A stretch of DNA of 64,000 nt from Alphaproteobacteria bacterium (lineage in GTDB: Bacteria; Pseudomonadota; Alphaproteobacteria; G965222575), in NCBI GenBank assembly GCA_965222575.1, contig OZ244958.1, positions 416,001 to 480,000 of the forward strand. The letters run 5' to 3'. Position numbers and translations under genes: made by a program. Position 1 is the first letter of the stretch. Every line of letters begins with the position of its first letter. Below, piece by piece: positions 3,244 through 25,800 of the stretch. The notes beneath the pieces were generated by a model. The model was not told the origin of the DNA. It made no database searches and saw nothing but the letters and a program-made list of their open reading frames with translations.

Positions 3244-5929
3244 CATAAGACAAGCTTTCATAGAGCACTTCAAAAAACACAATCACCGGCTTATAGAAAC
3301 AAGTTCTCTTATACCGGAAGACGACCAAACGCTTTTTTTCACAGCAGCCGGTATGGTGCCCTTCAAAGAGTATTTTCTCACGCCCCCACGCGCCCCTTTT
3401 AAGCGCGTGGTAACCGCTCAAAAATGCTTGCGCGCAGGCGGTAAACACAATGACCTAGAACAAGTAGGCTATACAACGCGACATCATACCTTCTTTGAAA
3501 TGCTTGGCAATTTTTCCTTTGGCGACTACTTCAAAGAAGAGGCTATTCACATGGCTTGGGCGTTCCTTCACAAAATTCTTGGTCTGAAGCAAGAGCAATT
3601 ATTGATAACAGTTTATCATACAGATGAAACAGCTAGACACTTGTGGAAATCTCTCGCGGGATTTTCTGATGGGCGTATTCTCTCTATTAAAACAGAGGAC
3701 AATTTTTGGTCTATGGGGGATGTGGGGCCTTGTGGGCCTTGTTCTGAAATTTTCTATGACCACGGAGCATCCCGACAAGGCACTCCCCCGGGGGCGCCAA
3801 AAGAACAAGGAGACAGATTCGTTGAAATATGGAACCTCGTCTTTATGGAATACAATCGGCAAACAGACGGCACACTCACGCCTTTGCCTTCTCCCTGTAT
3901 TGACACCGGCATGGGCTTAGAACGCGCCACAGCCATCATAGAAGGAAAAACAGACAACTATGAAACCTCTTTATTTCAGCCTTTGCTAGAAAAATGCTGG
4001 GAGAAAACCCGCACGAATACCCTCTCTGCCTCCCACAAGGTCATTGTAGACCATGTACGGGCTTGTAGCTTTTTAATCAGTGATGGTCTTCACCCCTCTA
4101 ATGAAGGGAGAGGCTATGTCCTGCGCCGACTCATCAGACGCGGCATGCGACACGCTTATTTATTAGGCTATGAAAAACCCTTGCTCTACAGCCTCGTACA
4201 AACCCTAGCCCAACACCTCAAAACCCCTTACCCAGAACTCAACAGGCAACAAGCCTTCATTGAAGCCGTTATCAAACAAGAAGAAGAACAATTCTTGAAG
4301 AATCTCTCACAAGGCATGAAACTCCTCTCCCCCTTTCTTTCGACCTCCCAAAAGATACTCAAAGGAGATAAGGTCTTCCTCTTGTACGATACCTATGGAT
4401 TCCCTGTGGATTTAACAGCGGACATTCTCCGTAGCCACAATAAAACGCTGGACTATAAAGGCTTTGAGAACGCCATGGCTGCAAGACGACGAGAATCCCA
4501 ACAAGCAGCTTGGGCGTCTACTACAGAAGGAAGTCGAGTTGGGAAAAAATGGCCCCTAGCAGACTCCTTAAAGGAACAAGCCTTTCCCCCAACGCAATTC
4601 GTAGGGTACGGAAAGTCAGGATTAGGGGGGAAACTGCCGCCTTGCCGTGGGAAAATTCTAGGGATTCAACCATTAGATAAAGAATACCACCAGATTGTAC
4701 TGGATAAAACTCCCTGTTACGCTGAAGGCGGCGGACAAATAGGGGACAGAGGAGACATGTGGGTGGAACTCAATGAGAAAAGGACAATCCTTTTTCATAT
4801 CACAGACACACAAAAAACAAAAGAAGGGGTTTTTGTGCATACTGTGCGCAGAGACGATGTAAAAGTTTCACGTGACACACTTTCCACATGCATTGGAAAA
4901 ACCGCGAAGATTATCGTGAAGGAAGGCTTACGCAAAGCCATCTCTAAGCACCATAGTGCAACGCATTTATTGCATCAGTCCTTACGCAAGGTCTTAGGGG
5001 AACAGGTACAACAAAAAGGGTCTTATATCGATGCCGAAAAGCTGCGTTTTGATATCCAGCACCAAGGGCCTATTCCCCAAGAGGCGTTGTCTGAAGCACT
5101 AGGGGAGGTTAACAGGCAGATTTTAAGGGATACCCCTGTCATGGTGAAAGAAATGCCAAAAGAGGAGGCTTTAGAAACAGGGGCCTTAGCGTTATTCGGG
5201 GAGAAATACGGAGGGAAGGTGCGGGTCATTGCCATGGGGGAGGAAGAGAAGACGCTTTATACGGGGTGGAAGGGGAAGACGCCATTTTCTGTAGAGTTAT
5301 GCGGTGGTACGCATGTGGAGACAACAGGAGATATTGGCGGGGTAGCACTCACGAAGGAATATGGCATAGGCACTGGGATTAGACGTATAGAAGCCTGTGC
5401 GGGGGCTATTGCTATTGAGCATTTAACAGACAAAGAAAAAGCGCTTCAGGATGTTTTTGAGGAGACACAGGAGGCTTTAGCGGGTGAAAGGAAAAAGAAT
5501 CGGCGTCTTCGGCTACAGATTGCTGCGCAAGCTCTTAGGCAACAGAAGGGGAATCTAGTGCGTTCTGTTATGTTCAAGGGGTTAGTGTTGGAGGAGATTT
5601 CTTCTAAGGAGGGTCATACGCTTGTGAAAGAGGCGGTGAAGAATCTGAAAAAAGAGCGGGTTGTCATTGCGTTGGTTGTGAAGGAGGAGAAGGAGAAAGC
5701 TGTGGTGATTGTGGGGGTGAGTGGGGGGGGAGGAGGAGAGGGGGGGGGGGCGTCATACCACAAAGCCCCTGAGATTGTAGCAGTAGGGGTAAAAGCGCTA
5801 GGGGGTACAGGCGGTGGAGGGAGTGATACCTTAGCGCAAGGAGGGGGGCGGAAAGCGGAGCAAGCGGAGCAAGCGCTCAAAGACATGCGGATTTTTTGTC
5901 AAGGTCTTTCGCCTTCCTTGAGAAAATAG
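3236..5929 (+). CDS. alaS: Alanine--tRNA ligase
   Basis: AGMVPFK, RAGGKHNDL, HHTFFEMLGNFSFGDYFK, HSATHLLH, ELCGGTH, GGGG..LAQGGG; ATG at 3236 overlaps the ccrM stop. Confidence 0.97.
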   Translation: MDDIRQAFIEHFKKHNHRLIETSSLIPEDDQTLFFTAAGMVPFKEYFLTPPRAPFKRVVTAQKCLRAGGKHNDLEQVGYTTRHHTFFEMLGNFSFGDYFKEEAIHMAWAFLHKILGLKQEQLLITVYHTDETARHLWKSLAGFSDGRILSIKTEDNFWSMGDVGPCGPCSEIFYDHGASRQGTPPGAPKEQGDRFVEIWNLVFMEYNRQTDGTLTPLPSPCIDTGMGLERATAIIEGKTDNYETSLFQPLLEKCWEKTRTNTLSASHKVIVDHVRACSFLISDGLHPSNEGRGYVLRRLIRRGMRHAYLLGYEKPLLYSLVQTLAQHLKTPYPELNRQQAFIEAVIKQEEEQFLKNLSQGMKLLSPFLSTSQKILKGDKVFLLYDTYGFPVDLTADILRSHNKTLDYKGFENAMAARRRESQQAAWASTTEGSRVGKKWPLADSLKEQAFPPTQFVGYGKSGLGGKLPPCRGKILGIQPLDKEYHQIVLDKTPCYAEGGGQIGDRGDMWVELNEKRTILFHITDTQKTKEGVFVHTVRRDDVKVSRDTLSTCIGKTAKIIVKEGLRKAISKHHSATHLLHQSLRKVLGEQVQQKGSYIDAEKLRFDIQHQGPIPQEALSEALGEVNRQILRDTPVMVKEMPKEEALETGALALFGEKYGGKVRVIAMGEEEKTLYTGWKGKTPFSVELCGGTHVETTGDIGGVALTKEYGIGTGIRRIEACAGAIAIEHLTDKEKALQDVFEETQEALAGERKKNRRLRLQIAAQALRQQKGNLVRSVMFKGLVLEEISSKEGHTLVKEAVKNLKKERVVIALVVKEEKEKAVVIVGVSGGGGGEGGGASYHKAPEIVAVGVKALGGTGGGGSDTLAQGGGRKAEQAEQALKDMRIFCQGLSPSLRK
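4864..4879. promoter_or_regulatory. parS-like palindrome inside alaS
   Basis: AGTTTCACGTGACACA, 2 mismatches to the consensus TGTTTCACGTGAAACA. Confidence 0.4.
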
Positions 5930-5930
5930 C

Positions 5931-6263
5931 TTATGGGCGGGTGTGCTTTACGGGTGGTGGTGCTTCTTCTTCACCCTGTTGTTCAAGGGATAAAAGATGC
6001 GTGTACAGGAGATTATTTTTCTGAAGTGCTAGTAAATCGTCACATCCTCCAATATGAGAAGAGCCGAAAAAAATTTGTGGAACTGTGCGGACATTGAAGC
6101 GCTTTTTCATTGTCTCAAACTCCTCTAGGGCTTGTGTCACCTCAATGGTCTTAAAGGGGTAGCCGGTCTTCTTTAAGAGCGCCATGGCGCGTTGACAAAA
6201 GGGACAATACCACTTGATATAGAGCGTAATTTTTATCTTTTTTTTCTCATCCATCTTGTTCAT
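5931..6263 (-). CDS. grxC: Glutaredoxin 3
   Basis: CPFC active site, TVPQIF, IGGCDDL; follows comF as in many Alphaproteobacteria; start uncertain. Confidence 0.9.
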   Translation of the reverse strand: MNKMDEKKKIKITLYIKWYCPFCQRAMALLKKTGYPFKTIEVTQALEEFETMKKRFNVRTVPQIFFGSSHIGGCDDLLALQKNNLLYTHLLSLEQQGEEEAPPPVKHTRP

Positions 6264-6310
6264 ATCGTCAATGGTAGCATAGAGGGATAATACTAACAAG
6301 GCGGTCTTTT

Positions 6311-7150
6311 TTAGAAGTGGTTAGAGGTGCGTCCCATAGTTCTAGCCAAGGACAAAATGTGTACAGCACGCGCTCCACCTTTCAGACAGACCTTCACGAC
6401 TTCGTTGACTGTAGCGGAAGAAGCCACGATATCATCTACAACAAGGACAATGCGATTTTCTATTGTCTTGCGGTGACGCCATGAAAGAGCAAAAGCTTTC
6501 CGTACATTACGGGCTCGCCTCTCCACATTCTTCCCTTTTTGACTACCTGTATACCGTGTTCTCACAATACAATCAGGGAGATATTGGCTTGAAGGGAACA
6601 AGGCGTTGACATAAGGGAAGAGTCCCTTACACAGAAAGGCTGCTTGATTATAGTGGCGAAAAAACTGCCGCAACCAGTGTAAGGGCACAGGGACTACCAG
6701 CAGTGGTTCTTTTTTCTCTATCACACAAGCCAACTCCTCTAGCAAGCCTGATAATAAGCGGCAAAATATTTTCGTGAGAAACAGCTTATCACCATACTTA
6801 AAGCTGATAATCAAAGGAGAGGAGTTTGAATCATACACCAGCAAGGACTGCATAGAGGCATATAAAGGGGGATGACGCAAGCATTTTAGGCACTTTGCAG
6901 CTTCTCCTAAGTCGTAAGGGAAGGGATAGCCGCATTGTGCACACTTAGGAGACGATATAAAGGTCAATTTTCCCCAGCACCTTGCGCATAGCTGGTGGTG
7001 ATCCAAAGTCGAACCATAACAGCAAACACACACAGGAGGAAACACTAGGTCTAATCCCACCTCTAAAAGAGGCTTGAGCCGTTCAAAAACCAAATCCCTG
7101 CCTTTTTTTTGATACCGCAGTTGTAGAGACACCCTAGCACATACAAACAA
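6311..7150 (-). CDS. comF: ComF family protein (double zinc ribbon plus PRTase-like domain)
   Basis: CxxC pairs, VPVPLH..R...R.YNQA, LVVDDI; true start probably downstream of the ORF start. Confidence 0.9.
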   Translation of the reverse strand: MFVCARVSLQLRYQKKGRDLVFERLKPLLEVGLDLVFPPVCVCCYGSTLDHHQLCARCWGKLTFISSPKCAQCGYPFPYDLGEAAKCLKCLRHPPLYASMQSLLVYDSNSSPLIISFKYGDKLFLTKIFCRLLSGLLEELACVIEKKEPLLVVPVPLHWLRQFFRHYNQAAFLCKGLFPYVNALFPSSQYLPDCIVRTRYTGSQKGKNVERRARNVRKAFALSWRHRKTIENRIVLVVDDIVASSATVNEVVKVCLKGGARAVHILSLARTMGRTSNHF

Positions 7151-7210
7151 AAATTGATAGCAACCTTATCCCTGTGCTAAGGTATACAAAATCCCCTCTT
7201 CAAAGATGGC

Positions 7211-7954
7211 ATGTCAGACCTGCACACCCTCATCACACAAGGCCTCATGGAAAGGCTTGGGGATATCAAAAGAGACTTTCCTACTGTTCTGGAAATAGGA
7301 CAAGGGGCACTTGCCCCTCTTCTGGTGAAACGTACCCGTACCGTCATTCAACTCAGTGATGTGCTCACAACCTCTTCTACCACGCCCTTCCAAGGCGTAA
7401 AAGGAAAGGAAAATGCTCCTCCTTTTCAACCCAACACCTTTGATGCCATCCTAAGTGCAGGAACAATGCAACGGGACAATACGCCCTCCCTCTTAAAAAC
7501 CCTGCTATCACTTTTGAAGCCTGATGGTCTCCTGTTGTATAGCCTCATTGGAAAAGAAAGCCTCAAAGAATATGCCGAACTTCTCATAGAAGCCCAAACA
7601 CACTCTCTAGGAGGCGCCCACGCCCCCCAACAAACCCGCCTTCTAACCCTCAAAGACGCAACAGATATGCTCACCAAAGCAGGATTCGCTCTCACCGTAG
7701 GAGACCGCCAGACCTATACACTCTCCTATACCACCTTCAAAAACTTCCTAAAAGACTACCCTACCCTCACGCCACTTCCCCTACAACCTCTCACAAAAGA
7801 TATTCACCACTACATAGAAAAAGACATCACCGCCCACACGCCGTGGACAGTGACTTGGGAACTCCTCTTCTTAACCGGTTGGAAACCAGACCCTTGCCAG
7901 CCCAAACCTCTCAAGCCTAATGAGGGGGTGATTCCCTTGTCACAAGTCCTATAA
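7211..7954 (+). CDS. SAM-dependent methyltransferase (BioC/NDUFAF5-like), divergent from comF
   Basis: ERLGDIKRDF, LEIG, LKPDGL, GW.PDPCQPKPLKP; conserved divergent pairing with comF. Confidence 0.75.
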   Translation: MSDLHTLITQGLMERLGDIKRDFPTVLEIGQGALAPLLVKRTRTVIQLSDVLTTSSTTPFQGVKGKENAPPFQPNTFDAILSAGTMQRDNTPSLLKTLLSLLKPDGLLLYSLIGKESLKEYAELLIEAQTHSLGGAHAPQQTRLLTLKDATDMLTKAGFALTVGDRQTYTLSYTTFKNFLKDYPTLTPLPLQPLTKDIHHYIEKDITAHTPWTVTWELLFLTGWKPDPCQPKPLKPNEGVIPLSQVL

Positions 7955-8473
7955 AGCCCCCTCATGCTGTAACAACGCTGTCTTAAGACCAAGGGCTTTC
8001 AGAGAACTGCCCCCTCTATAGCCCCGCAACTGCCCATCCTTTCCCACCACTCTATGACACGGCAACACCACACACAAAGGATTGCGCCCAACAGCCCCAC
8101 CCACACTGCGCGCAGACCCCTCCCCCAAACTTTTCGCTAAGTCCTGATAACTCACCGTCTCCCCAAAAGGTATCCCCTTCAACGCCTCCCACACAGCACA
8201 CTGAAATTTTGTCCCCTTCAACACAAGAGGAATATGGCTAAAGGCACACTTCTCCCCCCGAAAATAGGACTCTATAGCCCGCACTGCCTCCTCAATATTA
8301 AAAGAAGACCCAACACACTCACTCTTTGCGTTCCCGCGTTCCGAAGACTGCTCCTCCCCCTCAGAAGGCCCTAATGTCTCCTCCTCACGACCAAAAAACG
8401 CAGCGCATAACCCCTCTTTTGTCCCCCTAAAGGTCATCCAACCAAGAACACTATGAACATATTTTGTCTCCAT
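7949..8473 (-). CDS. ogt: Methylated-DNA--protein-cysteine S-methyltransferase
   Basis: GTKFQ.AVW.AL..IPFGETVSY and the PCHRV active site. Confidence 0.93.
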   Translation of the reverse strand: METKYVHSVLGWMTFRGTKEGLCAAFFGREEETLGPSEGEEQSSERGNAKSECVGSSFNIEEAVRAIESYFRGEKCAFSHIPLVLKGTKFQCAVWEALKGIPFGETVSYQDLAKSLGEGSARSVGGAVGRNPLCVVLPCHRVVGKDGQLRGYRGGSSLKALGLKTALLQHEGAL

Positions 8474-8599: not shown

Positions 8600-8617
8600 C
8601 TAACCCCCTATGATTTC

Positions 8618-8689
<72 letters not shown>

Positions 8690-8702
8690 ACAACATCTCT
8701 CT

Positions 8703-8731
8703 ATTATACCCTATCCTGCCACAAGATACAA
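8703..8731 (-). promoter_or_regulatory. Sigma70-type promoter for tRNA-fMet/tRNA-Lys
   Basis: Minus strand TTGTAT-17 bp-TATAAT, ending 13 bp upstream of tRNA-fMet. Confidence 0.7.
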
Positions 8732-9023
8732 AAATATCTCCTACAATTAAAGTCCCACAGAAACCCCACGAGAACCCCAACTTGCGCACAACAAAAAGGC
8801 AAGAGGCCTACTTGCGTTTTCTACCAGAAAAAGGGACGAATCCTAATGACACGGAGAGGGGGTTGGACAATGCTAGAGACTACTGTTAGCAGTCAATGAC
8901 GGGGGTGCCTTGTACCTACCACTAGCTACATCGCCTTCAATAGCCATTCTATCCTCCTGCCAACACAACCACCAATGACCAAAAAATTATAAAGAAGAAC
9001 CCGCAACCACTTGTACAAACTCT

Positions 9024-10299
9024 TCAACATAAACTTCCTGCATTACCCGTCTCCTTACTAGTATGTGTCTTTTGATTTCTCCTAAACCTAAGACAGGAGC
9101 CTACTTTACCAAAATAGCCCACCATGTAAAGCTTTTTGACGAGTCGGGAGTAAGAGTATCCACGAGTCATAGCGTACCACAATTTCTCCAGAGAGCGGCA
9201 TTTTATAACAGGTGAGGTGACGAGGAGCGCGTGACTATAGAGGCGTCCTTTTCTGGTCTTTTCCCAAACACAAATAGCCCACCATGTAAAGCTTTTTGAC
9301 CAAAGACAAATAGCCCAAATTTCTCCAGAGAACCATGTGACTAAGCTTTAAAGCTTTTTGACGAGTCGGGAGTGTATCCACGAGTCATAGAATTTCGCAT
9401 TTTATAACAGGTGAGGTGAGTAGCGCGTGACTAGAGGCGTCCTTTTCTGGTCTTTTCCCAAACACAAATAGCCCACCATGTAAAGCTTTTTGACGAGTCG
9501 GGAGTAAGAGTATCCACGAGTCATAGCGTACCACAATTTCTCCATTTTATAACAGGTGAGTGACAAGGAGCGCGTGACTATGTCGGCTTTTTGACGAGTC
9601 GGGAGTAAGAGTATCCACGAGTCATAGCGTACCACGATTTCTCCAGAGAACGGCATTTTATAACAGGTGATGACGAGGAGCGCGTGACTATGGAGGCGTC
9701 CTTTTCTGATCTCTCCTAAACAGGTAAGACAGGGCATTTTATAACAGGTGAAGTGACAAGGAGCGCGTGACTATAGAGGCGTCCTTTTCTGGTCTTTTCC
9801 CAAACACAAATAGCCCACCATGTAAAGCTTTTTGACGAGTCGGGAGTAAGAGTATCCACGAGTCATAGCGTACCACAATTTCTCCAGAGAGCGGCATTTT
9901 ATAACAGGTGAGGTGACCAGGAGCGCGTGACTATAGAGGCGTCCTTTTCTGGTCTTTTCCCAAACACAAATAGCCCACCATGTAAAGCTTTTTGACGAGT
10001 CGGGAGTAAGAGTATCCACGAGTCATAGCGTACCACAATTTCTCCAGAGAGCGGCATTTTATAACAGGTGAGGTGACGAGGAGCGCGTGACTATGGAGGC
10101 GTCCTTTTCTGGTCTTTTCCCAAACACAAATATAGGATAGGGGAACTGAATAACCAGTACGAGTCTGTTTCATACGAATGCACTTGAGCCACTTGGTCAA
10201 AGCTACAGAAGCATTACCATTACTAATATCTTGAGGGAAGGAGCCAGTATGGAACCAAATCTTATAGGATGCCCCCCCCCTTGCAATAAGTGCGTGAGG
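9024..10299 (-). pseudogene. Disrupted HUH-endonuclease rolling-circle replication initiator (phiX174 gpA/Microviridae/inovirus/plasmid-like Rep)
   Basis: Collapsing the repeats gives KIWFHTGSF (motif I-like), YICVWEKTRKGRLHSHALL (motif II) and LYMVGYFGK (YxxxYxxK, motif III), with a stop at 9024-9026. Confidence 0.7.
9111..10132. repeat. Tandem array of a 160-bp unit (about 7 copies: 3 near-perfect, middle copies degenerate or mosaic)
   Basis: Exact 160-bp period at 9111-9270, 9807-9966 and 9967-10126; TTTTATAACAGG occurs 7 times. Confidence 0.95.
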
Positions 10300-10336
10300 T
10301 CATGACCTTTTCAAGCAACCTTCTCCCACACCTTAA
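10266..10336. repeat. Degenerate copy of the 5S rRNA 3' end plus trailer (10458-10535)
   Basis: AGGATGC(n)..CAATAAGTGCGTGAGGTCATG..CTTTTCA..TCTCCCACACCTTAA is present at both sites. Confidence 0.85.
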
Positions 10337-10415
10337 ATTCCGCCCCTAAAAGCTTTGGCCATTAGCAACCTTCTCCCACACCTTAAATTCCGCCCCTAAA
10401 AGCTTTGGCCATTAG
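10314..10415. repeat. Perfect 50-bp tandem duplication
   Basis: AGCAACCTTCTCCCACACCTTAAATTCCGCCCCTAAAAGCTTTGGCCATT x2. Confidence 0.95.
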
Positions 10416-10502
10416 ACGCAAAGCAACAAGCCTTTGTTGTAAATGAGTTGCCAATAGAGGATGCCCCCCCTTCAATAAGTGCGTGAGGTCATGTACTTTT
10501 CA

Positions 10503-10620
10503 GGCCAGGCAACGTCCTACTCTCCCACACCTTAAGATGCAGTACCATCGGCACTGTGGCATTTAACGACCGAGTTCGGAATGGAATCGGGTGGAACCAC
10601 CACGCTATAACCACCTGGCC
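10503..10620 (-). rRNA. rrf: 5S rRNA
   Basis: GGCCAGGTGGTTATAGCG...CCCGATTCCATTCCGAACTCGG...GATGGTACTG...GGGAGAGTAGGACGTTGCCTGGCC, with complementary ends. Confidence 0.95.
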
Positions 10621-10724
10621 AGAAAAATACACCCCCAACAACCCCCTATCATCATCCCCCGCGCTCACTCACCTCCATTAGGAAACTCTAAGATAACTCA
10701 CTACTACACATGAACCCCCTCTCT

Positions 10725-13470
<2,746 letters not shown>

Positions 13471-13575
13471 GAGATTTTAAGTTCATGTGCAGTAATCAGT
13501 CATCAAAGAGAATACACCCCCCTACAAACTCTTCACTCATTACAGCACTTGCGGTGTTGCTTTTCTTATTTACAA

Positions 13576-13587
13576 TCTCAAAGAACC
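13576..13587 (-). promoter_or_regulatory. boxA-like rRNA antitermination element
   Basis: GGTTCTTTGAGA(TTGT) in the 23S leader, between the promoter and the 23S. Confidence 0.55.
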
Positions 13588-13620
13588 ACAGACAACGCCT
13601 GCTATTTTTCCCCCTTCGTC

Positions 13621-13649
13621 ATTATGAGAAAATGAAGGGAAAATGGCAA
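13621..13649 (-). promoter_or_regulatory. Sigma70-type promoter for the 23S-5S unit
   Basis: Minus strand TTGCCA-17 bp-CATAAT, about 150 bp upstream of the 23S, with an A-rich upstream tract. Confidence 0.7.
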
Positions 13650-13860
13650 CCTTTTTTTCTTTTTTCTCAGACCTTCACTTTGCCCGCTACCATAAGCCTA
13701 TTCTCTCCTCTTTTTCGCATCACCCCCCCCAACAAGAAAGCTTTTTTTAACAGATTTCTTTTACACTTTGCTCTCATCACAACCTAACTAATGAACCCTT
13801 TAGCTGGAGCATGCAGATTTAGTATCACCTCCTAGCACTTTATAGAGAGAAAGACAGACT

Positions 13861-16800
13861 ATGACGGCACTTGCCCTTCAAGGGCTCTTCAAAAAAGCAG
13901 TTTTCTATCTTCCGGGAGTCTGTCTTTTTTTTATGCACTTTTCAGCTAGCGCCCTACCGCTTAATCCTCAGATTAAAAAAGGGAACGCCCTTATTTCCAC
14001 CTCTTCCCATAAGCTCACCGTTGACCAAAAAACAGAACTCCTCCATGTAGACTGGGACTCTTTTCAACTACAACGCAACGAAGAAATGGAGATACTCCAC
14101 TCTTTTGGCATGAAAGGACTCAGCATCCACCGCGTCATCGGAGCCAACCCTTCTTTCATCAATGGGCGGCTTACTGCTGCAGGACGCGTCGTACTGGTCA
14201 ATTCCAGAGGCATTATCTTCGGGCCGAATAGTATTGTCAATGTAGGGGCTCTGTTAGCAACAACTTCCGATATACTCACCTCCTATGACGAAAACCTGTT
14301 CGCCTTCGATACCAGACAGACCTCCTCTATAGGCGAAATCCTTGTGGAAAAAGGGGCAGTCATTACCGCTAGAGACAGAGGATGGCTTGCTCTCATCGCC
14401 CCCATTGTCAAAGTGCAACGGGGCGCTATTCTCACTGCAGAAGAAGGGATAATCACCTTGATAGGCGGTAACAAATTCCTCATAGACCTCTATGGAAACG
14501 GGTTGGTGAACTTTATTGTCAATACCACAGAAACAGCTTCTTCCCTTATCAACAAAGGGACACTGAAAGGGAATAAGGTCTTCATGAAAATTCCCGCCTC
14601 AAAAAGCGAATCCCCCCCTTCCATAGAACAAAAAGGGCATATTCTCGCGACACACTTCATAGATGAAAAGAACAAGCTGACTCTCGGTACTGTGAAAATT
14701 GAGGGAGGAAGAAAAGGAGAGGTCTCTTTTGCCCAAGACTCTTCTGTTACAGTGAAAAATAAACCGCCACCGCCTCCTAACGCCGATAATGTCCCCCCTA
14801 GTCAAGATGATACCCCCCCCAGTAAAACCGCCCCCTCTCCTCGCGATATCACCGTCTCCATCACAGGGCGAATCGTCACCATAGACGGAAAAATTACCAC
14901 CCAAAGCGGTAAGATAGGTCTCAAAGCGGATACCCTGCTTGTCAAACAGACAGGCGCCCTCATCGTCAAAACCCTTACAGGAGGAGAAATCTTCCTAAAA
15001 AGTCGCGGGGATAGCTATATCTTAGGCACTATAGCTGTAGGGAATATCGCCTATAAAAAGAAATGGATTGCTAGTACGCATCTCCATGACTACCACTTCG
15101 AGACAACCATTCACCACCAAAGCGGGGGAGAAATTTTAGTAGGGGGACAGTACATAGCAACAGGCGGACAGATTATCCTTGATGCTCAAGGCGCCGTGAA
15201 ATTCATCGGCGGAAGCGCAAAAGCAGGAAATGGTAAAAACGCTCTCCTCTCCATCACAGCACAAAAAGGCCTCTATACCAACGGAGTCAGTCACTTCCAT
15301 ATCGACTCAACGCAAATCGGACTCATCCTCTTCAAAAGCCCTCAATCTTTATCTTTATTCGGCGAAATCTTTATAGGAAAAAAGACACATCTCCGCTTGC
15401 AACACCCCCCAACCCAACCCCTCACCTATTCCATCACCCTTCACCTTAAAAAAAAGCAATATCACCTCATCTCTAAACCCAACGGTATACCGACAACACT
15501 GCCTCAAAAACTCCTGCTCGACGGCTTTGAAGGCCAATCCCTCACCGCACCAGAAACCTTCGACCACAAAAACGCCATCGGAGGATTCCTACCAGTAGCT
15601 AAAGCCCTATCCCATGTGAATAAACCCGTTCGTACCCTCGCTAAAGCTTCCAACACCCAATCCCACTTCCTAGCCCTCAGCATAAAAGACAAAGAACAGG
15701 TCTTCCTCTACAAAAGCGACAAAACAGACACAGAATTCAAACTGCAAGACCTCCTGCTTCTGTCCGTGATTAAATCCCCCTCTTCCAAAACCATAAACTT
15801 CGGGAGCGCTCTTGCCCTCACCATGATAGGGGAAACCCCACTCCTCATTGTAGGCGCCCCCACCTACTCTTCTACCAATCTCCCTAACGCAGGAGCTCTC
15901 TTCGTCTATCAAACCCCTTTCACCGCCCCCACACTCACACAAAGCATAATAGGCAAAATGCCCCAAGGATTCCTCGGCGCAAATCTCGCCTTCGTCAATA
16001 CAAATACCCTCTTCTCCTCCCAGTATTCCCCACCCTCTCCCCGCTTCTTCCGCACCGCACAAAAAATCTTGCCCCACTTCCTCTCCTTCACCCTAAACCC
16101 CAGCACCCTAAACCCCAGCACCCAAACCCTCACCCACAACAACACCTACCTCATCAATAAACAAGGAACTGCACTCACCCCTATCCCCTCCCCTCAAACC
16201 ATCACCAATATCTTCATAACCGTTGACCAATTCAAAGGGGGCGCAAACCTCCTCGTCTTTCGCCTGCTACTCCATGTCCCATCAAAAGACCACACCATTC
16301 CAACAGGAATCGTCATCGTCAACACAGCAACTCCTCAAAATAACAACTACCCCATCCCCCTAGCTTGGAGTACCAACCACCAAATCACCTCCTTTCAGCA
16401 GTCCTTCAAAGACCTCCCTTCAATAGACGCCATAGAAATCTATCAATCCCAAAACGATATCCTAAATGTCATGCTCCTTTCCTACCGTGAGCGCGTTATC
16501 AAACTCTTAAAAATAGAACTGTCCCCACAATCCCTACAAGTCCTTAAAATCGACCGTTATCCCATCGACTTGCCTGACTTTTACACCTCTTCCATGATTG
16601 TCATAGGGGGGAAACTCCTCATAGGCTACGAAAAGGGCGTGCTAGCTTATCAAATGAAGGCAAAACCTCATCCCGCATTACCCCAACGTTTCGGTCCACA
16701 ACAAATCATCGGAGAAGACTTAAGAGGCATTGAAACACTGGCCTTTGGAGTCTCCATGGACAGCTATATTCTACCACCCTCTCAAAAAAGACGCCACAGC

Positions 16801-19800
16801 TTATACCTCCTAGCCGTCGGCGCACCCAATGCCGACCAAGGATTTGGAAGAGTCTATCTGTACAGTGGCTCAGATTATCAATCTCTCACACTCCACACAA
16901 TTCTCTCAGGAAAGCTAGAAGACGGCATCAATCCCAACACAGGATGGGGAGTCTCTTTAGCCCTAGGAGACGGCATTCTCTTCATCGCAACGCCTTACGA
17001 CCAAAAAATACCCTTCATCCACACCTATCTCTTTGAAGAAGACTTTGCCTATTTACGAAAAAGTACCACCATCCCCCTAGACCCTCTCCGCATCCAAGAC
17101 AACGAAATCCTAGCCATACATGGCTTAGACATGGATTATAGCAACGGGGTACTCGCCGTAACAAAAACTACAGAAACTTCTACCCATATGCTAGACCTGT
17201 TCAGAATCATAAGCCTCGATTCCATCCTCCTAGTGCAAAAACCATTTCCCCTCTTTACCCCCTTCTACACAATCGCCAACCAACAGCCCCAAGACACAAA
17301 ATTCTGGCCTAACGCCGTAAGCTTCGACCCCACAGGACAACTCCTCGGCGTGCTCTCACGCAAGAACAATATGCTCCTCCTCTACAGACTGCCACAGAAC
17401 CCCAAAAACCTCTTTATCCCCACTGATATACAAGTTCTCGTCACAAAAGACTTTTCCGTAAACTCCATTTCCCTCCCAACCTCCAAAATCACCAAAAGCA
17501 ATTTCAAAACCATAGGATACGGTCTTGAAATCGGACAAAAATATATCTGGGTCTTCGGCAATAGAATAGACAATACTAGCTTCCTGAAAATCCCCTTCAC
17601 CATAAAAAACAACTCCTTCTCCTTAGGACAGAGCAAGTTCTATGATGTCGCACAACAACTCCTCTCCCAACTTCTTTACAGTGAAGTCAAAAGCCTCAAA
17701 GCTGTCAAAAGAGGACAACTGAAAATAGGACTTCTTGAAGACCAAAACCAAGAAATCTTGTGGGGACGTCCCCAAGATGGATGGGTAGTCACCATGAAAA
17801 GCTATAGCCAAACAGAAGGGGAAAAATACTTCAAAATAAAAAACCTCTTCAAAACCTCCGAACAAATGACAATGTACCTTGAAGAAGGATTCGGACAGAG
17901 ACTTGCTACTATAGTGCGCACTAGTACACTCTCTCAAGCCAAGCACTACATTCTAGCAGCCTCCTCCTTCAAACCCCACGCTTCTGTCATCGCCCTCTTT
18001 TTCTCCCCAGCGCCAGACTTCCAAAACGCCTCCCTCTTCGGACTCATCCCCCCCACCACCCACCAGGGCTTCGGTTTAGCACTAGCCCTAGGGAAAAATA
18101 CCCTCTTCATAGGCGCACCAAACGCTAACACCGTCCTAGCCTACACCTATAGAGAAGAAAGCGAAAGAAGGTACGCCGTCACCAACCCTGTAAACCCCAA
18201 AGACCTCAGTCAAGACCTCCAAAAAGCCTTCCTCCCCCAAGTTCAAGCCGGGTTTTCCTTAGCATACCATGATGGAAAAAAACTCCTAGCCGTCGGCGCA
18301 CCCGGTAAAGGCGGCGGGGTTGCAGTCTTTCAGGTCACAGATACCCTCACCCTCATCCCCTTCAGACTCTTACAAGCTCAAGCACTTCCCTACCAGACCA
18401 ACTCTCCCTTCCAAACACTATGGGGAACATCCCTCGTCCAACAAGTCCCCTTCACAAACACTCCAACAGCCCTCTTCGGCGCCTCAGTAGCCTTCCACCA
18501 CACAGGGAACCTCCTCGCCGTAAGCGCACCCGGCATGGGTAAAGTGTTCCTCTATCACGTCAAAACTACCCACCACAACCTCTGGCCCCTCATAGCCCTC
18601 ATCGGCTCCCCAGCACCCCTCGAAGAACAATTCTTATACGCAACCGATAAAACCGCTATCGCAACACAATCCTCCCCCTCAACCTTCGGCGTGCCACACT
18701 CCTACACCATGAAACCTGTGTACGCTATGACACACTTCGGCTGGAATATCGTCTTCCTACACAACCCCTCCAACCAAGAGAATAAACTCTTAATCCTCGC
18801 AGAAAATACCCAAACAGCACTCTTCGCCTACCCCTTCACAACACAACCCCACTTCCAATGGGAAGACAAAAGTATAGGATATTTCCCCTTATCTCATACC
18901 TTCTCTCAAACCCAATCCATAGAAAACCCCATAGGACTCGCTACCCTCCACTCTATCTATGAAGACAGCACCTTCCTCTTTCTCGGCTACGCCAATAAGG
19001 TGACACGCCTGCACTCCAAAGACTTTTGGGCCTCCTCCGAACCTCCCGTCAATCCCTCAGTCTTAAACCTTCGCACCACGCCACTCCATCAAACCCTAAC
19101 ACTCAACCCTTCTCAACCTCAAGCGTTTGCACTCTTTCAGGGATACCTAGCCCTCGGAAACCCCTGGTATCAAGAAAACCTCGGAAAAGTCACCCTGTAT
19201 AAAATTACAGGGGACAACTTTCTGGACTTGACCCTGCTGACAATCCTCTTAGGCAAAGAACAAACAAAAGATGCTACATATTTCGGCTTCTCCCTAGCCT
19301 TCGCCAATCCTTATCTCCCTGAATACGACGCAACACTCTTCATCGGAGCCCCCGGCGGGCAAACAGGAAAAGTCCTCGCCTTCAGCCTTGCCTCTAACAC
19401 CATCACCCTACTCCCTTTTAACTTCCCAACTCTCCCTAATACAAAAGGCTTTGGCTTCGATATCGCCTTCCACAATGACAGATTAATCATCGGGGCACCC
19501 CTAAGCCAACACCAAAACAATACCCCTACAGGCGCCGTTTACTTCTATTCCATCACCTCCAACAACATACAACCTCAAGTCTCTCCTCTCCTCGTCATCA
19601 CCCAAGACAATACCCAGAATCTCTTCCCCCTCTCCCTCCCTCCTCCTAGTAACCATCACCATCTCGGTAAGGTCTTATCCCTATCAGGAGACTATGCCTT
19701 CTTCCTCAGTGCCAACCCCGACCCCTCCACCTCAACCATACACCTCCTACACTACCCCTCCAACGCACAGCCTCAATTTATCGACTCTTACACCTTCAAC

Positions 19801-22800
19801 GCCCCCCTATACGACCTCGTTGCCCTCCCAACAAAGCATCTCTTCCTCCTCACAAAAGATGCTCTTCTCTTCGCCTCATGGCAAACGCAAAACGGCCTGC
19901 AAATCCTAAAAGAAAAAACCTTCACAGAGATTCCCTTCTTCAAAAAAAATTCCCTCCAACAATACTATACAGGCGCCGCTCAATTCTATGAAAAACCCTC
20001 ATTCGCAATGGATAACATAGAGGAAACCCTCTTCTTCCTCAATCCACAAGGATTGTACAAAATCCATTATGAACATGCCCTGCCCGCCGCCAAACCTCTT
20101 TCCATAGCCGTAATGACCACCACGAAAAAACTTACCCCCCAAACCTCTTCTCCAATTCCCCTCTATGTCATAGCCATAGGCATGAAAGAACAAGACAAAG
20201 TCTATCTCCTAGTCGCCAAACAAAACGCCCCAAAATTATGGCACTTAAAACACATCATACACGGGGAAAAAGACACGCAGTTCGGCACTTCTGTTGCTTT
20301 GTCCTCTCAATGGCTAGCCGTAGGTGCTACGGGCTTGAAAACCAATAACAAAATACAGGGCGGTGCTATCCTCTACAGATTAACGGAAACCGATGAAGTT
20401 GTGCTCTCCTCCCCATTGGGAAAAGGTATCCCCATCATAGCAGGCTTTTCTCACCTTTCCAAAGCCGGCTTCTCTGTGGCCGTCTCCAATCAACGCCTCG
20501 TCATCGGCGCACCGCACACAAGGAAAAATAACAAAAAAATCGGCGCCTTCTTCGTCTATAGCTTCTCTCAAAACCAACCAATACCCTTCTCACAGACCCA
20601 AAATAGCCTCTCCTCTTCTCCTCAACACCCTACTCCTTTCGCTCTCCCCGCCTCTCTCCAGAATCAGGACGCCTCAATCGGCTATAGTATAGCCCTAGGG
20701 CCGCACAACTTGCTTGCCGTCTCCGCCCCCGGACAGAAACAGGTTCTCATCTATAACAGTCTCTCAGGCACCTTCCTCACAACCATAGACCCTAATGAGG
20801 ATACGACCAATGACCTAGACAGCTTTGATGCCATACCTTGGCAAATAAACTTCGGTTACAGCGTCACCTTTCAGCCGGGCGCACTTTTGGTCTTAGGGGC
20901 AAACTCTGGTGAAACTCTCATGTTGTATGAGTATACCTTCAGCTTCAACAACAACCAGCTACTAGGGCAAAATTCTCTCGTATGGAATGAGGGCAAGAAC
21001 ATAGAGGCTTCTACTTTAGGGTTCGAAACTTGGGAGCTAGACGACATCTCCAATGTCATAGCAGCAGTAGGGGATAAACTCTTTGTAGGAGGGCAAAGCG
21101 CAAGCCATGTTCTCCTGCTCGATTTTTCCAACGACAAAACCGCCACCATCAGCACCTTCCACAAAGGTCTTTTTCCTTTGGAAAAACTGTCACAACCCCT
21201 AGAAGAAATCACCCCCCTCGCCACCACAGCACAGCCTTTAGCTGTGGATTTCCTCTCTTTGCCATCTTCCCTCTTCTTAATGGCAATTGGCAAGCCTTAT
21301 AAGGACGAGGTTTACATCCTAACATCAACAGCACAAGACCTCTCAAAGTGGCACTTAAAGTTTGTCTTAAAGGGAGAAGCGCAAAGCGCCTTTGGGGCCT
21401 CGTTATCTTTGTACTCGAATCATCATCTCGCCATTGGCGCTCCCTTATACAATAGCAAAACAGGAGCAGTTTACCTCTATGATATCTCTGGAACTTCCCC
21501 CTTGCTCACTCAACATATAACGGCTTTTCCCGCCGCCTCTCAAGGAGGATACAGTGTGGATATGACGCAACACTATTTGGTCATCGGGGCGCCATTCGCT
21601 AGCAGTAGCCCTTCCCTTAGCAAACAAAGCGGGATTGTATACGGCTATCATTACCAGTCTCAACAGAAACGTTATGTCTTGTCTTTTTTGCTCCTGCCCA
21701 AAGGAGGGCAGAAACCTGCCAGTACGCCTGCCGCCCTACAGACCTTAGTGTTTCCCAAACCTTATAAGAGAAAAATGCAGCTTGGGGCTGCTGTGAGCCT
21801 TGAAGGGGATACTCTAGCCGTAAGCGCCTTAGGCTACCAAAGCGTTTATCTCTACAATTTAAGAACCCGCCGTCTCATCGGGGGCGTTGGAGACCTCATC
21901 CAGAAAGCAGGATATCTTAGGCAGTCCTTTGACTCTTTCGGACACAGCTTAGTCTTAAAGCCTGATGCCCTATGGGTACTAGGCACGCCTGCACAGGCAG
22001 ACGGCCTATTCTTGTACCGATTCCCCCTCACAGCTTTTCAACTCACCTCCACCTCCCCGCAAGACCCAACAGCTCTTACGCCCCTTCCCTCATCAGCAGG
22101 AAGCCCTTTCACCTCCTCTCTTTTCGCCCTAACTAACGGCTTCCTAGCAATAGGCGGTACCGGGCAAACAATCACTTTTTCTACAACCCAACACATCACC
22201 AAGCAACAAATAGGCTTCACCATGGAGGAATCCCAAACAGGGATTTATCAACAAGACACTATACAAGGGAGTACGCTTGCTATCAGAAGTGTCAAGGGAC
22301 GCCTACACACCGAGGAAGACTCCATAGAACAGATGTATCTGATTGCCTTAGGCAACCCTGAGAAGAATCAAATTTATCTCCTTGGGGCCTGGGAGCAAGC
22401 CCCTGAGAAATGGTATGTACAACAAATCATTAAGGGGCCTCAATCCTCTCAATTCGGCTTTGCCTTAGACTTCAGTAAGAACAATATTCTCGCCATCGGC
22501 GCGCCGTCCTATAAGGGACGCGGCGCAGTCTTTCTTTACGAACACCCCTCCGCTTTGAACTTTCCGAACTGGCAACACTTAGTCTTAAAACAAGAGATAT
22601 CAAACTTTGACCCCCAAAGCAAGGCAGGCTATGCCCTCGCCTTCGGCGGCAAAAATGACCAATTCTTAGCCATCGGCGCACCCGGTACCCATAGCGGCCC
22701 CACAGCAGGACAAATAGGGGGCGCAGTTTATGGCTATGAACTCTACCAACAGCACTTCTTGCCCGTGTTCCTCATAGCCCCTGCCGATACAAGACTACAA

Positions 22801-25800
22801 CCTCTTTTTTACAAGTCTTTTAAGATACAACATCTTCCCGATAACTTTGTCCCTTCCATGAGATTAGGGGCTGCTTTAGCCTTTGAAGACGACACTCTAG
22901 CCCTAGCAGCACCGGGCGCACAGGCAATTTATCTCTATCACCTCAGTACAGATACGCCCAAAAACAGAAGATTCTTTCAGAAAATTTCCCTCCCCACTGC
23001 AGACAAAACCGTCGGCGAAATCCTCCTCATGGAAAAAACAAGCCTTTTCATCTCCCAAAGAGATAATAACAATCAAATCACTATGCTTGCTTACTACTTC
23101 TCCCTTACAAAATGGAAAGCCTTAAAGGACAGACAATGGAGTCTCACCCTTCCAACCCCCTTCTCTCCCTATGCTATTGCTTTAGTTGATGGGGTCTTTT
23201 TTAGCGCTACGACCGCAGGAGGCATTGAGAAAAAAATCCTCTCTTCTGTCCCTACTACTAAAGTAGTCCTCATCAACGCCGTTTTCCAACAGCCCACAAA
23301 AACCCCAGGGCTTTCCTTAGATATCGCCCAAGAAAGTCAAGAACGAGACCTCATGGCCATAGCACAAGGACGGACAGTCTTTCTTTACACCCTCACTTAT
23401 AAAACCTTAGAACAACGATTCAAAAAAGTGACGCTCAAACAGATTCTACACCTGCCCTCCTCTTCTCCTAACCCCCCTTCTTTACGCGTCGCCCTAGGGC
23501 CCGATAAACTCTTTGTAGGAGACCCCTCCTATCATGGCGGATGGGGGCGGGTGCTGGTCTATGCTCTTTACCCTCATAAAGGACTCTCACTCTTAAGCTC
23601 CCCTCTCCCAAATCAAGGGATAGAACCCCTGAACTTCGGATATGCCTTAGATTACAACCCTTCAATAGGTCTCTTAGCCGTCGGCGCACCCCTAGCTCAT
23701 AAGGGCAATGGTCAAGTGTTTCTGTACCGCTATCAACCCAGTTCTCCAGACCTGCCAACCAATAAATACGGCACGCACGCTTCCTTCTCCTTCACCGGTA
23801 CAAAACAAAATCCCATAGGAGAAGTAGTCGCTTGGAACCCAAATGGATACCTCACTATAGCAAAAGGAAACAACCTCATCTCTTATGCCATAGACCATAA
23901 CGCACAGCCTACTCTGCTCACAGTCGAAAATCCTCAAGATAGAGAACAGTCACAAGGCCACATCCTCCACGCCGCTTGGTGGGATAACACACTCATCACA
24001 CTCAAACAACAAGGTGACCTCTTCTTTCTCTTTGCACAAACCGCTTCCATCACCTCTTCTACCCTCACATGGCAACAGATTACACCCCTCGGAACCTATC
24101 AAGCCTCCTCTCTCTCCTTCGCGCGCTCCCCCGTACTCAACACCCTAATCACAATCCTACAACAACCTCAAACCCTCGCTCTCCTCCAATTCCTCACCCC
24201 CTCTCCACAAACACACACTCCTCAACACCTCCTCGCCATAACAGCTGTCCCAATCTTAACATTAAAACAATCAATCTCAACTCAACTCCTACATGACCAA
24301 CGATTTGAACACTATACCTCCTCCGTCCTAACAACGAAAATTATCTACTATTCACACCAACTCATAGGACCCTTCGCCCAAAACCATCCTTTCTTTATAC
24401 CCTATAAAGAATACAGAGCTTTCTTGCACTTCCAACGCATCAAAGGCCTGATGCAAAAAATCCCTGCTCTCCTACAACTCCCACCTTCCTCAATAGACAC
24501 CATACTCACTCCCATCCTCATCCAAATACTCAAAGACAATATCATTCCTATAAAACCTCTCCCAACTTCCTTTGCATTCCCCACCTTGCCAACAACCCCA
24601 CACAACATTAACGACCTCACCGCATCCATCACACCAGAGAATAACGATATCGAAAACCCCATAGGGGACGGCGGCTTGCCTCCTGTAGTCATTGAAACCA
24701 CCACCACCCCACCTGATAACAATGATAATGATGACAAGAAGCCTGATGAAGACACTGATAACACGCCTACTGACGGAGGCACCTTACCTCCTGTAACCAT
24801 TACGCCTACTAATGAAGACACTGATGACCCAGACATTGATGACAAGAAGCCTGATGAAGACACTGATAACACGCCTACTGACGGAGGCACCTTACCTCCT
24901 GTAACCATTACGCCTACTAATGAAGACACTGATGACCCAGACATTGATGACAAGAAGCCTGATGAAGACACTGATAACACGCCTACTGACGGAGGCACCT
25001 TACCTCCTGTAACCATTACGCCTACTAATGAAGACACTGATGACCCAGACATTGATGACAAGAAGCCTGATGAAGACACTGATAACACGCCTACTGACGG
25101 AGGCACCTTACCTCCTGTAACCATTACGCCTACTAATGAAGACACTGATGACCCAGCTGATAACAATGATAATGACGACAATACGCCTGAAGAAGAAGAA
25201 GACCCCACCTTACCTCCTGTAACCATTACGCCTACTAATGAAGACACTGATACCCCAGGCATTGATGACAAGAAGCCTGATGAAGACACTGATAACACGC
25301 CTACTGACGGAGGCACCTTACCTCCTGTAACCATTACGCCTACTAATGAAGACACTGATGACCCAGCTGATAACAATGATAATGACGACAATACGCCTGA
25401 AGAAGAAGAAGAAGACCCCACCTTACCTCCTGTAACCATTACGCCTACTAATGAAGACACTGATGCCCCAGGCATTGATGACAAGAAGCCTGATGAAAAC
25501 ACTGATACCACGCCTACTGAAGAAGAAGAAGACCCCACCTTACCTCCTGTAACCATTACGCCTACTAATGAAGACACTGATGACCCAACTGGTAACAATG
25601 ATAATGACGACAATACGCCTGAAGAAGAAGAAGACCCCCTATCTCCTGTAGTCATTGAAAACACCAATCCTCCAGATGATAACAATGATGATGATGGCAA
25701 TACGCCTGATGAAAACACTGATGCCACGCCTACTGAAGAAGAAGAAGACCCCACCTTACCTCCTGTAGTCATTGAAAACACCAATCCCCCCCCTAGCAAC

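Follow-up and report, generated by a model that had tools for sequence, protein, structure and literature searches.

The window analyzed here is a stretch of 64,000 nucleotides (nt), positions 416001-480000 of contig OZ244958.1, which is the single contig of a host genome of 1,215,846 bp with a completeness of 97.6%. Unless the contig is named, coordinates are window positions. The subject of this analysis is a sequence resembling a rolling-circle replication initiator (Rep) of the HUH type. It is located directly downstream of the 5S rRNA gene (10504..10618, minus strand; Rfam RF00001, 81.7 bits), in the same orientation, in the 1813-nt spacer that ends at the tRNA-Met(CAT) gene (8617..8690, read from 8690 to 8617 on the minus strand; ARAGORN and Rfam). 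Three adjoining segments of the minus strand form this sequence: a unique head (10133..10267), a tandem array of a 160-nt unit (9116..10131), and a unique tail (9024..9115). In the remaining spacer (8691..9023), which is unique in the genome, no coding remnant was recognized. As argued below, this locus probably represents the nuclease core of a HUH Rep (Pfam: PF23343) as a dead relic, left by a small rolling-circle replicon, i.e., a single-stranded DNA (ssDNA) phage or a plasmid, then tandemly amplified and now decaying.

An open frame of 122 codons, PHALIARGGASYKIW...KRTPL, runs on the minus strand from 10299 to 9934, with a stop codon immediately upstream at 10300-10302. Tandem Repeats Finder (TRF) reported a period of 160 at 9733-10132 (2.5 copies, 98% matches), and a repeat search of 9078-10156 found 5-7 copies of unit sub-segments (families D1-D5). 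Together with a k-mer map and a comparison of the units, these results delimit a head-to-tail array of 1016 nt, or 6.35 unit lengths. Three units are complete (10131-9972, 9971-9812, and 9275-9116) and differ from one another at 1-2 of 160 positions (98.8-99.4% identical). The interior of the array (9811-9276, 536 nt) is represented in the k-mer map by ordered unit fragments with many small deletions and by two out-of-order scraps. A tail-like piece inside the array (9704..9733, minus strand) matches positions 9070-9097 of the tail, with 25 of 28 positions identical and a 2-nt gap, which points to an earlier, longer duplication that took in part of the tail. No inverted repeats were found in 8700-10700.

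The 160-nt unit encodes ICVWEKTRKGRL(H/Y)SHALLVTSPVIKCRSLEKLWYAMTRGYSYSRLVKKLYMVG, that is, the region from the strand before the HUH motif through the first Tyr of motif III. Since 160 equals 3 × 53 + 1, each junction shifts the frame by +1, and thus the gene is not carried by any single frame. The head encodes a degenerate motif I and the helix preceding the HUH strand (TKWLKCIRMKQ...PLSY). The last unit continues directly into the unique tail, ...KKLYMVGYFGKVGSCLRFRRNQKTHTSKETGNAGSLC, which reads FGKVGSCLRFRRNQKTHTSKETGNAGSLC up to the stop codon at 9024-9026. Counting 110 residues for the head and one unit, up to the second Tyr, and 29 for the tail, the whole comes to 139 amino acids (aa). 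An earlier reading, made from the sequence alone and herein referred to as the sequence-only reading, had described a minus strand open from 10299 and a peptide of about 140 aa after collapsing the repeats; both descriptions agree with the present analysis. The joint that it proposed, 9968/9111, and the unit boundary 9972/9115 are equivalent, as both positions share the 4 nt ATTT. The searches described below all started from the natural reads of the locus, 9934-10299 (122 aa) and 9027-9281 (85 aa), which overlap.

Similarity to Rep proteins was found by several methods. The Pfam family REP_ORF2-G2P (PF23343) matched residues 33-91 with an E-value of 2.3e-6 and 28.2 bits, and a genome-wide search for this family returned the locus as its sole match (28.1 bits). 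In a phmmer search over 1.84 billion cluster representatives, two matches were found at E ≤ 0.001. The best one, herein referred to as P0002 (E 7.9e-5), is a 341-aa Rep with its own PF23343 match at E 9.4e-24; in pairwise comparison it also had the top score, with 53 bits at 35% identity over 88 aa. The second match, P0003, is a repeat protein in which no Rep domain is present, and was discarded as spurious. A tblastn search against 50,697 phage records gave three matches at E ≤ 1 (3e-5, 2e-2, and 8e-2), all three to Microviridae Rep/VP4. The unique head aligns with residues 125-180 of P0002 and with the Rep of the phage record BK061423. By blastp, 15 of 17 Reps in one set and 18 of 21 in another were matched at 25-39% identity. 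Alignment of the natural read by hhalign to a set of ten Reps that excludes the window sequence (A2) gave a probability of 97% and an E-value of 1.1e-10 over 45 columns.

A hidden Markov model built from A2 was also run, with filters off, against the six-frame translation of the genome, cut into all stop-free segments of 30 aa or more. Among these 21,094 segments, 10299-9934 (contig positions 426299-425934) ranked at the top with an E-value of 6.1e-8. Ranks two and three were taken by two other copies of the array (E 0.048 and 0.074), and the best unrelated segment had an E-value of 0.49. The derivation of the locus from a HUH rolling-circle Rep of the PF23343 family is thus supported by sequence comparison, and the relic is filed here as family-derived and not as a working member of PF23343.

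The residues expected of such a nuclease were located by alignment. In a 12-row Rep alignment (A1), the invariant positions include I57, V59, E61, G66, H71, W89, G95, Y106, and Y110, and T18, F21, H69, and K113 are nearly invariant. In a 24-row alignment (A3), to which diverse Reps from IMG/VR, metagenome-assembled genomes (MAGs), and the class of the host were added, E61, H71, and Y106 are invariant and H69 nearly so. Motif I reads FHTGSF (10237-10254, minus strand) and aligns with LTLTF of the relatives. It agrees with them in the T and F columns but has G for L and S for T, and could be degenerate or simply divergent. The HUH motif of the first unit, seen in the unit translation and in the alignments, is H-S-H (10087..10095, minus strand), with Ser where the relatives have Phe or Trp. 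At unit position 37 (10095 in the first unit), units 1, 4, and 5 have C, encoding His, and units 2, 3, and the last have T, encoding Tyr (Y-S-H). Thus, the first His is lost by an H-to-Y change in three of the six scorable units. The only complete copy of motif III, YMVGYFGK (Y-x-x-x-Y-x-x-K; 9105..9128, minus strand), lies at the boundary of the last unit and the tail. Its closing Lys occurs in the last copy only, and its inner residue is Gly, compared with Lys in the relatives (Y-x-x-K-Y-x-x-K).

The sequence-only reading had proposed Rep homology from such motifs. Its family assignment was recovered by Pfam, phmmer, tblastn, and hhalign, which are independent of the motifs it relied on. The proposed HUH and Tyr motifs do align to those of Reps at the invariant or nearly invariant positions listed above, and FHTGSF stands at the position of LTLTF in the relatives. 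The cautions expressed in that reading, namely the Ser in the HUH motif, the loose motif I, and the absence of a visible capsid or integrase gene, stand as well.

Structure prediction was carried out with AF2. A first model, from 12 sequences, had a predicted local distance difference test (pLDDT) score of 59.3 and gave no meaningful Foldseek or VIA matches. A second model, for which 24 sequences were used, had a score of 72.5; its core has the order strand-helix-strand-strand-helix, and the blocks between residues 11 and 90 score 76-92. Disorder is seen in the Tyr region (97-122), where pLDDT falls below 50 from residue 97 onward. For this model, Foldseek found no PDB matches at E ≤ 0.001. 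HUH enzymes account for 9 of the 37 matches listed (best E 0.02, TMq 0.44), namely IS200/IS605 transposases, the Rep origin-binding domain of AAV2, a REP-associated tyrosine transposase, and SIRV1 ORF119; these are interspersed with PII, MoaC, and designed ferredoxin folds. In a wide VIA search, three HUH entries (HUH transposases and SIRV1 ORF119) had Z-scores of 7.2-7.7, compared with 8.6 for ribosomal protein S6. The predicted fold is compatible with HUH and not diagnostic of it. The fold searches do not single HUH out.

Compared with the 312-aa Rep of BK061423, the relic covers approximately residues 45-195. Three stretches of that Rep are missing from it: the Cys-rich N-terminus, a segment of about 15 residues that separates the Tyr motif from the post-HUH helix, and the C-terminal ~110 residues. 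Rep homology fades about 10-15 residues past motif III, and a local tblastn search with 11 Reps found nothing credible below position ~9000. No ATG, GTG, or TTG precedes motif I; the first start codon is the TTG at 10200, and the open reading frame (ORF) beginning there has 89 aa and lacks the motif I strand. No match was found in a search for longer homologous proteins or in a profile search among proteins of 598-2000 aa, and the three matches of the last-copy read to phage records (E ≥ 3) are noise. There is no second Rep copy in the genome, at its completeness of 97.6%. The Phage_F capsid family (PF02305) had no match at E ≤ 10 in the whole genome, and the Zot-like ATPase family (PF05707) had none at E ≤ 1, in a search whose control matched in 13 of 14 genomes. 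The locus is classified as a relic and not as a gene because the N-terminus, the start, and the C-terminal half are gone, every junction causes a frameshift, and half of the scorable units lack the first His.

Upstream, the Rep-derived sequence is bordered by a displaced duplicate of the 5S 3' end and its flank. The original block (10460..10535, minus strand), consisting of the last 32 nt of 5S and ~45 nt of flank, was recognized by repeat family D7 (D7b, 10464-10505), pattern counts, and local alignment, and has been copied distally. Its second, shortened copy lies at 10268..10336 on the minus strand (D7a, 10275-10316; D7 identity 88%); it supplies the first ~10 codons of the open frame, which are not Rep. 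At 10314..10413 on the minus strand, TRF found two exact 50-nt tandem units (period 50, 100% matches), each with a shortened 5S 3' end (TTAAGGTGTGGGAGA). The TTAAGGTGTGGGAGA motif occurs 3 times in the window, with 0.27 occurrences expected, and the 5S gene itself has one match across the whole genome. The duplicated 5S end could be the scar of an old attachment site or a plain local duplication.

The borders of the units suggest how the array arose. All unit junctions read GGGCT/ATTTG, the entry from the head reads CCTAT/ATTTG, and the exit to the tail reads GGGCT/ATTTT. The ends of the duplicated segment thus share TATTT, which is a signature of microhomology-mediated tandem duplication. The proposed history begins with a piece of a small rolling-circle replicon (ssDNA phage or plasmid) that would have ended in the spacer between 5S and tRNA-Met(CAT). 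A 160-bp segment, from just before the HUH motif to the first Tyr, may then have been tandemly duplicated by illegitimate recombination or slippage at the 5-nt TATTT. Unequal exchange would have amplified it to about six unit lengths, to which the near-identity of the complete units points, and the interior units would later have lost pieces through further microhomology deletions. The product would be functionless and, given its sense orientation between 5S and tRNA, at most passively transcribed.

Parts of the locus were also found in contigs of four public runs, herein referred to as X1-X4. Each run was assembled separately, into short contigs, and the source sample may be behind X1 and X2. 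A contig of X1 covers 9783-9917 without differences and spans the junction 9812/9811. In X4, which belongs to another study, a contig covers 9112-9300 with 3 differences and spans the junction 9276/9275. The unique head is covered by 180-nt contigs of X1 and X2 (10103-10282, no differences) and by a contig of X3, from a third study (9997-10251, 4 differences in 255 nt). Thus, the tandem junction and the head recur at 98-99% identity in contigs of two other studies (X3 and X4), and head, tail, and tandem junction are present in related strains. The array is not an artifact of this assembly alone. Contigs made of unit pieces are about 2-3.7 times as deep as the flanks, which is compatible with several copies, though depth is not copy number. 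A joint from 8673 to 10516 in one X1 contig (depth 10, against 28 for the side) would cut the tRNA and 5S genes and was taken to stem from another organism or a chimera. No joint supporting a circular form was seen in the run contigs.

A contig of a related strain in X2 differs from the window in other parts of the spacer as well. At 10365-10452, 86 nt are replaced by 36 other letters, and several single-base differences occur in 8712-9059. Together with the 50-nt units and the changes in the array, this replacement indicates that the whole spacer turns over quickly.

Several results weigh against the interpretation as a decayed, amplified Rep core. The Pfam match lies just 0.4 bits above the cut-off of PF23343 (27.8 bits) and takes in positions 18-76 of the 99 in the profile. 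No family was found for the 122-aa read in PHROGs, where the tail read had one unrelated match (E 0.28), and none for four proteins in NCBIfam; a search of PDB sequences gave no match to the fragment at E ≤ 10. As described above, HUH enzymes are not singled out by the fold searches. The scrambled interior of the array is without contig confirmation: 9291-9776 is uncovered in X1, and only 9534-9695 of it is covered in X2. Some of the detail of this interior could stem from noise in the assembly; the gap in cover could be explained by short branching unitigs, in which case it is uninformative either way. Finally, the first unit keeps H-S-H and both Tyr residues in the open 122-codon frame (89-aa ORF from TTG), and could in principle still encode a residual small protein.

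Explanations other than a dead relic were also weighed. A non-coding repeat that is open by accident and resembles Rep motifs by chance would be in keeping with the marginal Pfam score and with the ease with which short motifs are found. It is extremely improbable, as four different searches point to one family and, in the control with the A2 model, the locus stands seven orders of magnitude in E-value away from all others. The first-unit ORF (89 aa from TTG 10200, or 122 codons) might instead be expressed and act as a domesticated or still active mini-nuclease, as the open frame of unit 1 with its catalytic residues kept and the ~98% conservation of the head in the X3 contig would suggest. 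This conservation, however, is no higher than the general strain similarity of the flanks. Moreover, the ORF from TTG lacks the motif I strand, no promoter-like site was found before it by a scan, and it stops 12 frameshifted residues past the second Tyr, without the Lys. With Ser in place of the hydrophobic HUH residue and the Tyr region disordered in the model, such a nuclease is very unlikely.

The array could also be kept as a working cis element or RNA, such as a fossil or active origin or a processed rRNA-tRNA spacer RNA. Its units are 98.8-99.4% identical and lie in sense orientation between 5S and tRNA, so that the array would be transcribed if the tRNA depends on the rRNA promoter. 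But recent unequal exchange would yield this near-identity anyway, the interior units are full of deletions, and the region has no inverted repeats. The adjacent 266 nt (pseudo-5S region) fold no better than shuffles (z -0.43), Rfam shows only rRNA and tRNA in the region of the relic, and promoter and terminator scans stayed at or near the shuffled expectation. We regard a maintained element of this kind as hardly credible. The reading as a dead, amplified Rep core is the most likely one.

The donor of this core was described in the sequence-only reading as a small ssDNA phage or a rolling-circle plasmid. The part concerning a Rep of a small rolling-circle replicon held; for phage versus plasmid, trees and profiles disagree, and microvirus, inovirus, and plasmid are all candidate donors. 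A microvirus of the clades associated with Alphaproteobacteria (amoy-, reekeekee-, and roodoodoo-like), of which the relic would be the last provirus piece, is suggested by the best phage record. This is the Rep of BK061423, "rooFreshIt," a 3.6-kb roodoodoovirus (E 3e-5, 37% over 82 aa). The roodoodoovirus clade was proposed to infect Alphaproteobacteria, in the cited text without host evidence (PMC9865509), and the present host is an alphaproteobacterium. Among six small group profiles, that of eight roodoodoo-, reekeekee-, and amoy-like Reps scored highest (45.8 bits, or 37.5 bits without rooFreshIt); the groups were chosen after the best match was known, which counts against a microvirus. 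The other group profiles gave 32.7 bits (P0002 and Lachnospiraceae), 18.0 bits (other microviruses), and 17.8 bits (inovirus-like). Pooled profiles, however, perform alike: the one built from 13 microvirus Reps gives 46.5 and 12.4 bits, and the one built from 8 non-microvirus Reps 42.6 and 22.2 bits. Moreover, five other roodoodoovirus Reps match weakly (22.7-32 bits). An 18-row tree joins the window sequence with three microvirus Reps and P0002, but this grouping is weak (61/83). A 22-row tree sets it instead with P0002, MG945510, and inovirus-like, plasmid, and Lachnospiraceae Reps, and the branch separating it from the roodoodoo-amoy-gokusho side has support of 93/97, is not starred, and comes with long-branch warnings. 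The genome also lacks a Phage_F capsid gene. A microvirus donor is possible but doubtful.

An alternative origin, quite plausible if somewhat short of probable, is an element with a P0002-type Rep, whether a filamentous (inovirus-like) phage, a rolling-circle plasmid, or an integrative element of another kind. P0002 is the best match among the 1.84 billion cluster representatives, and in the 22-row tree the window sequence falls on its side. In IMG/VR, relatives of the P0002 group stand beside Zot-like genes in all three loci examined (of four found), other relatives are integrated in Lachnospiraceae and Clostridia (Firmicutes) MAGs, and a protein of a 5-kb Fusobacterium plasmid matches with 40 bits. 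However, the genome lacks a Zot gene, the profile of the inovirus group reaches only 17.8 bits, the phage records at E ≤ 1 are Microviridae only, and with all identities at 25-39% none of the relatives is close. The plasmid matches in particular are too weak for naming a donor: 53 plasmid records were found at E ≤ 10, the best at E 8e-3 (the Fusobacterium 5-kb plasmid), and several of them, at E 0.4-1, are annotated as "Rep protein."

Other candidate sources were set aside. Three of the 40 nearest genomes, all of which are related to the host at the level of the same class only, had matches at E ≤ 0.01; these lie in or between housekeeping genes (RNase HII, LpxB/LpxI, and an AMP-binding enzyme) and were treated as chance. 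PF23343 Reps are rare in the class of the host, being found at E ≤ 1e-5 in 7 of the 300 other genomes sampled, four of which exceed the cut-off, and the 8 loci of this class scan showed no similarity to the window read (best E 0.14). Metagenome loci did not supply the context of P0002: two loci match its residues 57-106 only, and the one examined holds an ABC transporter and no Rep. In one IMG/VR contig of 7105 nt, 326-aa ORFs occur at 1112-2092 and 5908-6888, about 4.8 kb apart; probably, the genome is circular and inovirus-like and its assembly ran on beyond a single unit length.

In the literature consulted, the closest analog is the chromosomal VP4 gene of Chlamydophila pneumoniae. According to the portion of the report cited here, this gene is orthologous to phage VP4/PRIP (putative replication initiation protein) and clearly gokushovirus-derived (Rosenwald et al., 2014, PMC4589997). 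In both cases, the Rep gene of an ssDNA phage stands alone in the chromosome of a small genome, for C. pneumoniae that of an intracellular bacterium and without a capsid gene beside it in most strains, as far as the cited text describes them (PMC4589997). Unlike the C. pneumoniae gene as presented there, the relic is cut at both ends, internally amplified, and frameshifted; its identity to known sequences, 25-39%, is too low to name a donor. Rep genes of ssDNA phages stranded as chromosomal relics are already on record (PMC4589997), and the present one is of the same kind, in a new lineage. Whole microvirus prophages that use XerCD/dif are described for Bacteroidales, Hyphomicrobiales, and Enterobacteriaceae in the text cited (PMC9753089). 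They share with the relic the presence of ssDNA-phage DNA in a bacterial chromosome; unlike these whole proviruses, which lie at dif-like sites, the relic is part of one gene beside a duplicated 5S 3' end.

Two types of intact Reps may be compared with the relic directly. The Rep of rooFreshIt (OG2; Olo Ndela et al., 2022, PMC9865509) has the same order of motifs, and the match extends from the helix preceding HUH through the HUH strand to the helix that follows. It is a full Rep with a Cys-rich N-terminus and the motifs WWITLTY, RLHWH, and YVSKYATK, encoded in a circular genome that also has a capsid gene. The relic lacks both ends, and its placement in this clade is unsupported by the 22-row tree. 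With the P0002-type Reps, the relic has PL-YI-VWE-T-KGR-H-H, P-IK, E-W, and YM--Y-GK in common. Unlike the relic, these are full-length (258-387 aa) and, where the context is seen, stand beside Zot-like genes.

The genomic surroundings were also surveyed. A two-piece alphaproteobacterial transfer-messenger RNA (RF01849, 174 bits; contig positions 632200-632532, outside the window) identifies the host as an alphaproteobacterium; control matches were found only in Caulobacter. The G+C content of the relic shows no contrast with its surroundings. Upstream of 5S, the 23S rRNA gene (Rfam) runs from 13471 to 10721 on the minus strand. No 16S rRNA or spacer tRNAs are found upstream of this 23S-5S pair (10721-13860), and the rRNA genes appear to be unlinked in this genome. 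rRNA operons of Alphaproteobacteria usually end with 5S followed by tRNA-fMet. The tRNA-Met(CAT) gene has, as read by eye, a C1/A72 mismatch, which we take to be a hallmark of initiator tRNAs, and is followed by a tRNA-Lys gene (8599 to 8526, minus strand; ARAGORN).

Past the 5' end of 23S, the next feature is a giant ORF of 4196 aa on the plus strand (13861-26451). It has an N-terminal two-partner secretion (TPS) domain, FG-GAP repeats, and, at the C-terminus, a run of near-identical acidic Thr/Pro/Asp-rich repeats; from its sequence, it looks like a giant secreted TpsA-type exoprotein. On the other side, at 5931-8473, the neighboring genes encode a glutaredoxin, a ComF-like double zinc ribbon/phosphoribosyltransferase, a methyltransferase, and an O6-methylguanine-DNA methyltransferase, with nothing phage-like among them.

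A more specific history can be formulated, namely that the relic is the last trace of an amoy- or roodoodoo-like microvirus provirus in a deep-branching small-genome alphaproteobacterium, which entered beside the 5S 3' end and of which the duplicated end is the old attachment site. We consider this combination unlikely. These microviruses include the smallest known DNA phages, and their hosts are given as not known in the text cited (PMC9865509). If true, this history would provide the first host-anchored evidence that the clade infects Alphaproteobacteria, reduced lineages included, and would reveal an unusual integration target. More generally, a Rep relic at this locus reveals no new mechanism; it would be a clean example of a tandem array that arises at a microhomology and is later worn down by small deletions. 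It is also a gene fragment likely to escape annotation pipelines, because no single frame carries it. Its practical value is that of a search seed for the mobile element of the lineage. For this organism, which has no relative closer than the class among the genomes searched, the relic would show that the lineage once carried a rolling-circle replicon.

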